A DNA stretch of 63,783 nucleotides, counting the filler, from Collodictyon triciliatum (Eukaryota), in NCBI GenBank assembly GCA_043381765.1. It is 5 parts of 5 records of this genome, joined end to end, with 100 filler letters (N's around TTAATTAATTAA, not from the genome) between each part and the next. Parts side by side here need not be neighbours in the genome. Positions count along the whole stretch, not along the records: positions 60,218 to 63,783 come from JBHJMP010001767.1; 4 more parts are not named here. One strand, written 5' to 3'. Made by a program: the position numbers and the translations under genes. The notes beneath the pieces were generated by a model. That model did no database searches. It was given only the letters and a program-made list of their open reading frames with translations, and was not told the origin of the DNA. Numbering within the stretch: position 1 is the first letter of the stretch; each line of letters opens with the position of its first letter. This document shows positions 60,331-63,477 of this stretch, in pieces.

Positions 60331-63300
60331 TTGATTTTCCTCAATTCCTATGATGGTATCTGCCGTTGTTTGAGCCAAAGACGTGGTTTGGCTCATGGAC
60401 CCCGCAGCATTTCCAAAATAAAATAATGCACGAGATGCGGAGGGGTTTGGTGAGAATACGCAATGATAGAGCTAAGGAAGATTTAAAAGGAAGAAGGCCA
60501 GAAAATGAGGGTGTTGTCAGTATAAGGCAAAGTATTGAAGTAGAATAATTATGATAAAGATGGGTTTCATATGTATTTCGATTCGTGTGGTGTGTTCAAA
60601 ATTGAATAAGGGTGCTAATTGAGAATCTTATCACCGCACCTGAAGTTCAGTAACACTTTTACCACCGAAATCAATCAAGAAAGGATACTCAATAGAGGCG
60701 GATTCGCTCCATTCATCAGATTTCTTCATGTTTGGAACCCAACCGTATGATTTTTCAATCACACTTACGAAATAATTGCATGATTCTGCTTGCCGGAGAG
60801 ACTCGACAACATACTAGTTTTTATAAATAAATGGTAACTGTAGGATTTTCCAAACTAAATCCTTTTACACAGGAAATCCTTACTTAAAGCAATATGTATG
60901 TCAATTATAATCGAATAAATATAAAAATGGTACATGCATGTGTGTGTTTCTATGAATATTTTACTTGTGGCAGTTTTCCTTTCCTTTTATAATCATCGAC
61001 GAAACATGTGACAAATGTAATAGAGATGCCGAGAGGACCCAGCAGCTTATTTAACCTATCAAATACATCAAGATATTCGAAAATCACACACACTATGATT
61101 TAAAAGGCTTTGAACGGATGATCAACTTCAAAATGTCATGACTAGAGATGAAAGTAAAATATTCAGTGTGCATTCAACTTGTCAATGTTTTGTCATTAAA
61201 TGAGTACTGCTTTGCTCCGTTTTCAAGGAATTGTCTTGCTTCAACATCTGTGTCACCGTGGGTTGTGCACAAGAAAACTCGAATGTTTCTCTCAAACATA
61301 TCCTTAGATGGAAGCAGCAAACGGGTCTTTGCTGTTTTTGCAGCAGTGTCGAAGGATTCTTGAGCTTCTCTCGATTCCTTTTTGTTTTCGCTTTTGTCCA
61401 TCTATATCAGCATTTTTCATATTAGAATTTGGACAGTTTAAGAATGGTACGATATGTGTATGCGTGAAGGTTTACTTTTTCCTTTATTGCTGAAAAATAC
61501 AGCAGAGTATTGAGCTCACGTTCGTCGCTGAAGGTCACTAACAGATATAAACAGATTTTAATTCAGCAAAATGTACATATCTGGCGTATAATGAAGAAAT
61601 AATGAGAATTATTGCGTATGAAGAAATTCATCATATTTTGTAACTCGCACCGTCCCTTCCAAAAAGAAGAGGTATTCCGAGGTTAGCAAGGGATAATGAT
61701 TTGCATCCTTCAAACAATTCTTCTTTGCCTCCCTGCACGTACATAGATAATCAATTATAATTTACATATGTAAAACTGAATGTATATTCGGACGAAAATA
61801 TAAAATATGAAATTGGTTACAGTAGATGGTAGGTGCAGTTTCTCTGTTTGGTTGATTGATGAGAGTATTATGTAGAGTCCGATTCCGTTTTCCCAGCTAA
61901 AATTGATGCATGGGTACAAAGGGGAAGTTATGTAAATACCCAGCTATTTGATTCTGGAACGACACATTCATAAATCGCAATTGATGGTATCATATAATAT
62001 TCTATACAAATATATTTATATGTTTTGGAATGTAAAGCTGTGTCACAAATACTATTCTATATATGAAAAATGGTTATTTGAATCGACTAAATATTATTAG
62101 CATTCGCTATATATGAAATATAGAACGAGTGGACTCCAAAAACCTTTTCGTGAGATCTGTTGCAATGATTCCATATGAGCCAAGAATCTTTTTCACCCAA
62201 GAAAGAATAAACTGTTTGGCAGCATTTCCTTTGAGATAGAGAGAGTACAATAGGCTTCAGAGTTGAAAAGATATTAACAAAAGATATCTCCGAATTATTA
62301 ATATTTTTAAAGCGGATTCATATTTCATATATCAATATTCTTAATGACCTGTCTGCAAAGAACAATAATGAATGGTAAAGATGCAATTTATTACTTCGTA
62401 GAGTTAGCATAGGATTGATTGAACAGAAGAATATCACGATAAGGACAACGTCTATCTTTTTTCCAAAGACATCTAAAAATGATTTGAAAAAAAATTACAT
62501 ATTAACAAGAAAAAAAACATCATGAAAATCAAAGCTTAAGTAAATGGACAAGAAACCAATAAAGGTACCTCCCATCCAAATTAAAAAGAACAATAAATCA
62601 ACGGAAAGCATCACCAGAGCAATTTGGTGATTATAGTATGTAAAGCACTCAGCAAAGGATGGATTACCTTCTTCAAGGAGATTAACATTCACAGAGTACC
62701 TAGCAAGCTCCTTATTTACAAATCTCCGTACTTCTTTGCGGTTTTCTCTATCGAAGTAATTAAGCACCGCTGTGTTTCTTTGGGTGGATTAAAAAAGTGG
62801 ATTAAAATGTGGGTTAAAAATGCGGATTAATAAATAGGGTAAATGTTGGAGCTGGGTATACTTATATTTTTATAATTTTTCTGTTTGTATTTGTGTTTCA
62901 GTAAATTTATTCAGTAAATATACATCAAACAGTGAATCGAACGATCATTTTAGTTTTAATTAAAAAGAGCCCAAGGGAGAATGGGAGATGCGCTCAACGA
63001 ATCAAAAAAGTATCGTCATTATTTATCAGTGTTTTTTTTTGTCTGCATCAAATACATCTCTCTTTTTTTTTTTCATCACCAAAATTGCATATAATAACTG
63101 CAAACTCTTTCTGGCGGGAATGAATCTTGCCCTGCTTTGCGTTTGGTACTAAAAGGTCGATGAGATTTCGAAGAAGGTTTCCGTCCTGAACATCATCTGC
63201 GATGTTTCTGGCTGATAACCCACGCTTTTGCAGATGGAAATTCATCCATTGAAGGAGCGCCTATTTTTTCATCGTGCTTATCTTGTTAGTCTGTTGCAAA

Positions 63301-63477
63301 TTCATTTGTGTTATTTGAAAATGACAAAATGTTAATGGGGTTTCTCTAGGTTTAGAGCTGTATCACGTAATAATAAAATGGGAAAGTTTGGATGGTTGTG
63401 ATCATGGAAGTAAGTGTCGAATTAAAGGGGGGAAGGGAAGAAACCTCCTTGTCGATTCGTTCAACTGGAAAGTCCAT
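60331..63477 (-). CDS. Tandem calponin-homology (CH1-CH2) actin-binding domain fused to DUF4062 (TEP1/NPHP3-like); 3' end lost at assembly join
   Basis: MDFPVERIDKE|ALLQWMNFHLQKRG..NIADDVQDGNLLRNLIDLL (CH1); AAKQFILSWVKKILGSYG...WENGIGL (CH2); NIRVFLCTTHGDTDVEAR...YFVSVIEKSYGWVP...YPFL..FGGKSVTELQ|LYHCV...RALFYF (DUF4062). Confidence 0.7.

Follow-up and report, generated by a model that had tools for sequence, protein, structure and literature searches.

We analysed a 63,783-nucleotide (nt) stretch of DNA from Collodictyon triciliatum (assembly GCA_043381765.1), hereafter the window, and found in its last part (record JBHJMP010001767.1) an expressed gene that joins a CH1 domain, a CH2-like stretch and a charged linker to a degenerate DUF4062 domain, a family recently renamed NIR. 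The catalytic glutamate of that family is replaced by glutamine, and we favour, as moderately likely, the reading that the protein is a cytoskeleton-associated, NLR-like scaffold. The window consists of five separate assembly pieces with spacers between them (N-TTAATTAATTAA-N at 15679, 31391, 52397 and 60162), so that genes on either side of a spacer are not linked neighbours. The CH/DUF4062 gene fills the last piece (60218-63783), which carries low-complexity sequence at both ends and is preceded by the spacer that spans the 60162-60173 region. Three-frame reading of the minus strand placed the 5' part of the gene between an ATG at 63477 and an exon end at 60331, exactly the span that had been proposed in a preliminary description made from the DNA letters. 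The gene model has 12 exons and 11 introns, all of them GT-AG and 74-328 nt long, and the joined coding sequence of 1281 nt comprises 427 stop-free codons. Three codons 5' of ATG 63477 there is an in-frame TAA, and the 5' untranslated region (UTR) reaches ~63489-63491.

The presence of a DUF4062/NIR domain in the spliced protein was confirmed by profile and pairwise searches. Exon 11 alone matched Pfam PF13271 at E = 4.5e-4 (20.8 bits, profile positions 47-73 of 82), and a phmmer search with this exon against 1.84 billion representative proteins returned six proteins at E ≤ 1e-3, four of which are DUF4062 proteins (P0002, P0003, P0005 and P0006). In P0002 (2314 residues), a DUF4062 domain (43.6 bits) precedes NPHP3_N/AAA_16/NACHT and TPR; over 146 columns across exons 9-12, the spliced protein aligned with residues 208-350 of P0002 at 34% identity and 94 bits (BLAST). 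A search seeded with the P0002 domain and limited to proteins of 355-2000 residues yielded 42 further homologues. A hidden Markov model (HMM) of 43 homologues, from which our protein was left out, scored 72.5 bits over residues 262-411, whereas the best of 1000 shuffles reached 8.4 bits; 41 of the 43 list PF13271, 39 in precomputed lists and P0002 and P0003 by scan. The motifs IRVFLCTT, YGWVP, KSVTEL and RALFYF, from which the preliminary description had recognised DUF4062, are present and align to DUF4062 proteins, and the profile search bears out that assignment. Scanned singly against PADLOC and NCBIfam, the DUF4062 exons gave no match. A word-indexed protein search with exon 11 found no longer protein, which is weak evidence, and a metagenome contig scan with the same exon gave 294 pattern matches, none of which was confirmed. 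The two other phmmer matches, P0001 and P0004, are tandem-repeat proteins that matched in 6-7 stretches and carry nonsense Pfam assignments, and were dropped from the alignments; short queries attract such repeat proteins. In the PDB, exon 11 gave only chance matches, to Cry51-type proteins (E = 0.37).

According to three 2026 preprints, NIR is a TIR-like NADase of bacterial antiphage systems and of human TEP1, its activity depends on a single glutamate (PsAvs2 E108, KpSwz E97 and TEP1 E1008), and in eukaryotes it occurs mostly in NLR-like proteins, adjoining a NACHT NTPase (10.64898/2026.05.01.722283; 10.64898/2026.09.04.749371; 10.64898/2026.06.25.731849). We mapped these residues through P0002, which matches chain 11gz_A of the TEP1 crystal structure (E = 1.2e-16). 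With the numbering offset set to 893, arginines fall at TEP1 positions 908, 954 and 976, the residues named in the TEP1 paper, and the same offset places E1008 at the second glutamate of the S-V-T-E-M-E-V (TEMEV) motif. The column of catalytic E1008 holds Glu in 46 of 46 homologues (counts here are homologues with the residue at that aligned column) and Gln380 in our protein. At TEP1 R976 (GSRYG), an arginine in 42 of 45 homologues, our protein has Ser344, and at R908 (STFRD), an arginine in 24 of 42, it has Gly276. RNA contigs cover the codons of Gly276, Ser344 and Gln380 and show no difference there. The motifs SSTF and DLRWG read CTTH and TCFVD; their divergence, already remarked on in the preliminary description, turns out to be part of a wholesale loss of the active site that includes the catalytic glutamate. 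Near-invariant columns, defined as those with one residue in at least 85% of the 43 homologues, number 29, and our protein keeps 13 and has lost 16. By comparison, at least 24 of the 29 are present in every one of the 43 homologues except the N-terminally truncated P0003, which has 12. Our protein has retained the fold-defining hydrophobic core together with the motifs YGWVP, S-x-T and FYF.

As reported in these preprints, exchange of the catalytic glutamate for glutamine or alanine abolishes the activity of PsAvs2 and TEP1 (10.64898/2026.05.01.722283; 10.64898/2026.09.04.749371; 10.64898/2026.06.25.731849), and alanine mutants of TEP1 R908 and R976 lower activity (10.64898/2026.05.01.722283; 10.64898/2026.09.04.749371). 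Because the glutamate has become the glutamine that inactivates PsAvs2 and TEP1, two active-site arginines are lost and fewer than half of the near-invariant columns persist, the NIR domain is probably non-catalytic. Judged from these residues, we consider it quite likely that the domain is structurally retained and catalytically dead. A rearranged site could instead have left it an NADase or another nucleotide-processing enzyme, which would make the protein a cytoskeleton-tethered, NAD+-depleting effector. That possibility draws on the conserved fold core and motifs, on a glutamate two residues before Gln380 and on the remark, in the discussion of a 2026 NIR preprint, that NIR domains may have diversified in function. 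It is hard to reconcile with a glutamate found in every homologue and with the E-to-Q change that kills PsAvs2 and TEP1, or with the loss of the R908 and R976 equivalents and of SSTF and DLRWG on a branch 15 times the median length, and we regard an active enzyme as distinctly improbable.

Evidence for splicing came from contigs of the public runs X1, X2, X3 and X4 aligned to the window; X2 is a freshwater metatranscriptome, and gene stretches without RNA cover in X2, X3 and X4 are uninformative. Ten of the 11 introns were seen as CT..AC joints whose ends coincide exactly with those of the gene model; X1 shows all ten, X2 three of them and X4 one, and X3 contributed nothing. For the intron between exons 7 and 8 there was no joint; the RNA contigs have two reciprocal 14-nt loose ends there. 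The gene is expressed in at least two studies, as the RNA contigs attest. Record 2 of X1 (559 nt) runs contiguously through exons 11, 10, 9 and 8, reaching 23 nt into exon 12 at one end and 14 nt into exon 7 at the other. Because this contig spans the joint 61401 to 61476, which skips 74 nt (CT..AC) and has 63 nt on its short side, the last CH-side exon and the first DUF4062 exon lie on one spliced RNA. The CH–DUF4062 fusion is transcribed, and the two sets of exons belong to one transcript, as the preliminary description had supposed. The contig is hardly genomic DNA, since it lacks five introns.

The fusion could in principle be an artefact of two adjacent genes, the second of which starts at the ATG at 61401: exon 9 begins with this ATG after an in-frame TAG, and an unspliced CH frame would stop 17 codons past exon 8. 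The RNA contig, by contrast, joins 61476 to 61401 over a canonical 74-nt GT..AG intron, the frame is kept across the junction, and a relative in Diphylleia rotans (P0009, described below) has the same domain order in one open reading frame. With exon 8 joined to exons 9-11 in X1 record 2, we largely reject the two-gene reading as very improbable indeed.

X1 differs from the window at six positions in five codons, three of the changes being synonymous and two being replacements (Val280Ala, through two adjacent changes at 61243-61244, and Thr410Met, at 60383), which indicates that X1 represents a different allele or strain and not simply the assembly's own reads. Record 1 of X1 continues for 231 nt past 60331 as a loose end. 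The first 30 of these nucleotides have no match in the window, and the gene is therefore cut by the contig end. At the 5' end, the X1 contig departs from the genome ~12-14 nt upstream of the ATG, at an AG (63478-63491, minus strand); its 22 further letters have no match in the window and could be an upstream 5'-UTR exon past the contig or a trans-spliced leader. Exon 9 opens with an ATG right after a TAG (61399-61404, minus strand) whose AG is the splice acceptor, and the introns on both sides of this exon are phase 0. The ATG may be a remnant from a time when NIR was encoded by a gene of its own, with this start codon, before a CH gene captured it.

The N-terminal part of the protein is a CH module. 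Exon 2 alone matched Pfam CH PF00307 at 26.8 bits, above the cut-off of 26 (E = 6.4e-6, profile positions 6-57 of 109). Among its 43 matches in the PDB at E ≤ 1, 37 were CH proteins (fimbrin/plastin, alpha-actinin, plectin, filamin, MACF1, parvin and NAV2) and the remaining six were ribosomal protein L17. Residues 10-101 align with residues 269-361 of P0009 at 33% identity, rising to 49% over 43 hhalign columns, and the CH domain of P0009 in turn matches the first CH of the actin-binding domains in plectin, actinin, MACF1, filamin and spectrin (E = 6e-7 to 2e-3). Given the Pfam score, the PDB matches and the alignment to P0009, CH1 is genuine and belongs to the class found at the start of tandem actin-binding domains. 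A word-indexed protein search with exon 2 found no longer protein, which again is weak evidence. The CH2-like stretch of 102 residues (exons 5-8, residues ~126-227) matches CH1 weakly but in register by hhalign (E = 0.12) and P0009 weakly by phmmer (E = 0.66). It carries the motifs W-x-x-G, LGIP-x-LL and DE-x-x-x-x-T, which we take to be typical of CH2. The actinin/filamin-type tandem CH domain of the preliminary description is thus half verified: the first copy is confirmed, and the second, whose exons found no profile match when scanned singly, is a candidate CH2 by these presumed motifs.

The closest counterpart in architecture is P0009 (EP00002_P039414), an uncharacterised protein of 1245 residues in the EukProt transcriptome of D. 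rotans, with CH at 268-338, DUF4062 at 461-552 and nSTAND1/NACHT at 700-927 in one open reading frame. The combination of CH, DUF4062 and NACHT in P0009 means that the architecture is not unique to our gene. P0009 is the one protein among 42 homologues with CH in its precomputed Pfam list. A further relative, P0012, combines RRM, a sub-threshold CH (E = 0.0066), DUF4062 and NACHT, and its CH matches CH1 of our protein at E = 3.2e-4. No paper that we found describes a protein of the CH-NIR or CH-NACHT kind; the architecture tables in the preprint supplements lay outside this search and may list CH. The word 'calponin' is absent from the text of 10.64898/2026.05.01.722283, 10.64898/2026.09.04.749371 and 10.64898/2026.06.25.731849, and 'actin', searched in two of these three, occurs once in one and not at all in the other.

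The relatives form a large paralogous family in D. rotans. Partner domains in the NIR-STAND family include RRM (P0012), BRCT/HHH (P0038) and Roc-COR-LRR with a C-terminal NIR (P0018), and in D. rotans the NIR domains of P0017 and P0018 are fused to Roc-COR-LRR or COR. With partners so varied, CH is one of several shuffled partners. By our reading of the Pfam lists, 31 of 42 homologues list a STAND-type P-loop NTPase family, in keeping with the literature and with the earlier statement that DUF4062 usually lies beside STAND/NACHT. The Walker A motif follows the start of NIR by ~260-280 residues in P0002 and P0009, and from this spacing a P-loop is expected near residue 530-545 of our protein, past both the contig and the 231-nt transcript extension. 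By analogy with P0009 and P0002, the missing 3' part likely encodes a STAND/NACHT NTPase with repeats.

Alternatively, the protein might end soon after the visible part, as a small CH-NIR adaptor without STAND that docks onto NIR-STAND paralogues in the manner of TIR-only adaptors. No NTPase is visible, a degenerate domain used only for interaction would suit an adaptor, and such forms would have been missed by a homologue search that excluded proteins of fewer than 355 residues. Yet the transcript extends at least 231 nt past exon 12, the relative with a Pfam-significant CH (P0009) has nSTAND1/NACHT, and most eukaryotic NIR proteins are reported to be NLR-like. We consider a short adaptor unlikely, though it is the strongest of the competing explanations.

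In a maximum-likelihood tree of NIR domains, the terminal branch of our protein measures 3.45 changes per column against a median of 0.23, a 15-fold difference. The protein pairs with another long branch, P0003, in a join flagged as unreliable, and the tree gives no answer on whether the CH-NIR fusion is shared with P0009. A branch of this length, together with the 16 lost near-invariant residues and the large paralogous family in D. rotans, could mark a paralogue in decay, a member of an expanded NIR-STAND family whose transcription and splicing persist under relaxed constraint and which has no specific function. Decay is at odds with 427 codons that stay open over 12 exons with canonical splice sites throughout, with expression in at least two studies and with the retention of core structural residues; three of the five codons changed relative to X1 are synonymous, albeit in a tiny sample. 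We therefore hold decay to be improbable.

Since DUF4062 is known as an NADase and the active site is lost here, the likely mechanism differs from that of the cytoskeleton-tethered, STAND-like sensor or signalling protein first proposed. With its enzyme signature gone, the protein is more likely to act in scaffolding or localisation than in NAD+ depletion. Many animal TIR domains are structural or homotypic-interaction modules. In the scaffold reading, the NIR domain would in good probability no longer hydrolyse NAD+ and would act as a module of the same kind. The CH module may place the protein on F-actin, which, going by the sequence, we rate as evenly balanced. The output would not be NAD+ depletion by the protein's own NIR domain; it would more likely consist in recruiting or regulating active NIR paralogues, or in clustering CH modules on oligomerisation. 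A bolder form of this idea, which we put forward as a long shot, is that the protein is a STAND machine of the NLR-like kind that has given up its ancestral NADase effector and uses the actin-binding CH module as its output. The resting state would then be a monovalent F-actin binder, and STAND oligomerisation on a trigger would turn clustered CH modules into a multivalent actin cross-linker; as a variant, active NIR paralogues would be drawn to the cortex by the dead NIR domain. If this were true, a switch of the innate-immunity type would have the cytoskeleton as its target in place of NAD+ depletion, as the NIR counterpart of non-catalytic TIR adaptors, and would provide an NLR output of a kind that we have not found described in the literature.

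Several observations weigh against the scaffold reading, beginning with the domain assignments and the loss of activity. The mapping to E1008 is transitive via P0002, and exon 11 itself does not match 11gz_A. A glutamate two residues upstream of Gln380 (TELQ), in a column that holds Glu in 31 of 46 homologues, could conceivably substitute for the missing one. Human NWD1, NWD2 and NPHP3 have the domain and show no NADase activity in vitro, for a reason that the 2026 NIR preprints give as unknown; as these inactive proteins keep the domain, neither activity nor its absence can be predicted well from sequence alone. The Pfam score of exon 11 lies below the DUF4062 cut-off of 24.7 bits, and exons 9, 10 and 12, scanned singly against Pfam, gave no match. 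Short NIR-only proteins were excluded by design through the 355-2000 residue limit. The four CH2-like exons 5-8, scanned singly at 21-27 residues each, gave no match to Pfam (0/4) or to a CH protein in the PDB (0/4). The fusion junction is seen in one contig of one run, X1, whose RNA label is guessed. Finally, the visible part contains no STAND NTPase; the contig breaks off within intron 12, and the comparison of the 231-nt transcript extension with the window covered its first 30 nt.

The likeness to P0009 extends to the order of CH and DUF4062 and to the NIR regions, which also align. P0009 differs in having ~260 extra N-terminal residues, a single recognisable CH and a visible nSTAND1/NACHT, and it retains SSTFRD, DLRWG, GSRYGW and the catalytic glutamate. 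The two proteins are not grouped in the NIR tree, where the placement of ours is unreliable. Human TEP1 (PDB 11gz) belongs to the same domain family via P0002 and has the same motif order. TEP1 is an active NADase that uses E1008, with R908 and R976 contributing, whereas our protein has Gln, Ser and Gly at the positions of E1008, R976 and R908; TROVE precedes NIR in TEP1, and CH precedes it here. The nearest NIR relatives are P0002 and proteins of the NPHP3/NWD1/NWD2 type (NIR-NACHT-TPR/WD40), in which NIR adjoins a STAND NTPase. These relatives lack CH, and the glutamate is retained in the 46 homologues examined, while our protein has no visible STAND.

Tandem-CH proteins such as alpha-actinin, plectin, filamin, spectrin and fimbrin share with our protein the CH1, which here sits at the extreme N-terminus and is followed by a second stretch of ~100 residues. 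Unlike in those proteins, no spectrin, filamin or EF-hand repeats follow, and no search supports the CH2-like stretch as a CH domain. The bacterial systems Avs2-NIR, Swarozyc, Evangelion, Vulcan and Vesta use the same effector family in a modular arrangement of effector with STAND or an auxiliary domain. Bacterial NIR defence proteins are reported to deplete NAD+ via the glutamate, whereas our protein is eukaryotic, intron-rich and without that residue. Non-catalytic animal TIR adaptors serve as a working analogy: they keep an NADase-type fold as an interaction module, and belong to a different family (TIR). A non-catalytic interaction role for NIR is also raised as a possibility in the discussion of a 2026 NIR preprint.

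For most NIR-containing, NLR-like proteins of eukaryotes, the preprints give the function as unknown. The gene described here is a natural variant with the very E-to-Q change used to inactivate the enzyme, and it is expressed and fused to a cytoskeletal module. It would provide a clean case for the role of a NIR domain unable to cleave NAD+ and, together with the CH-NIR-NACHT protein of Diphylleia, suggests that NLR-like proteins and the actin cytoskeleton are connected in protists. Two things limit the value of the case: the gene is incomplete, and shuffling of N-terminal domains is common in protist NLR-like families.

Table 1. Parts of the CH–NIR gene and flanking sequence in the last assembly piece; joints are given by the window positions that they connect.
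Feature	Position	Strand	Content and evidence
Exon 1	63445..63477	-	ATG 63477 and 11 codons; X1 joint 63259/60 to 63444/5
Exon 2	63106..63260	-	N-terminal half of CH1; Pfam PF00307 and PDB matches; joint 62777 to 63106
Exon 3	62668..62777	-	Middle of CH1; alignment to P0009 269-361; X1 joints
Exon 4	62395..62472	-	C-terminal helices of CH1, assigned by sequence reading; joints 62472 to 62668 (X1) and 62227/8 to 62394/5 (X1, X2)
Exon 5	62144..62228	-	Start of CH2-like region; joints in X1 and X2; no Pfam or CH-type PDB match
Exon 6	61821..61896	-	CH2-like, SWENG motif; joints 61896 to 62144 (X1, X2) and 61731/2 to 61820/1 (X1); no Pfam or PDB match
Exon 7	61651..61732	-	CH2-like, LGIPLL motif; X1 record 3 piece 61651-61731; no CH match
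Exon 8	61476..61537	-	End of CH2-like region; donor is the CH-side half of the fusion junction; joint 61401 to 61476 (X1 record 2)
Exon 9	61208..61401	-	K/E-rich linker, then first strand and helix of NIR/DUF4062; Gly276 codon 61255-61257
Exon 10	60965..61055	-	NIR part matching DLRWG of relatives, reads TCFVD; joints in X1 and X4
Exon 11	60640..60813	-	NIR core (YGWVP, SVTELQ); Ser344 codon 60748-60750; Gln380 codon CAG 60640-60642
Exon 12	60331..60471	-	End of NIR core (RALFYF), then GT donor at 60330; joint 60471 to 60640 (X1, X2)
Start of intron 12	60218..60330		Runs into poly-G/poly-A at contig end
T-rich tandem repeat	63586..63783		Other contig end, upstream of the gene

Elsewhere in the window, a 944-codon intronless frame at 722-3556 (minus strand) encodes Roc and COR-A and is of the ROCO-type GTPase class; no NIR domain was found in this frame. 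Five further features of eukaryotic type, at 40379-41062 (minus strand), 47211-48401, 48779-49564, 15691-16341 and 37461-37532 (all plus strand), comprise an exon of PP2A B56, a frame with NHL repeats, two zf-RVT frames, which are retroelement remnants, and one tRNA.

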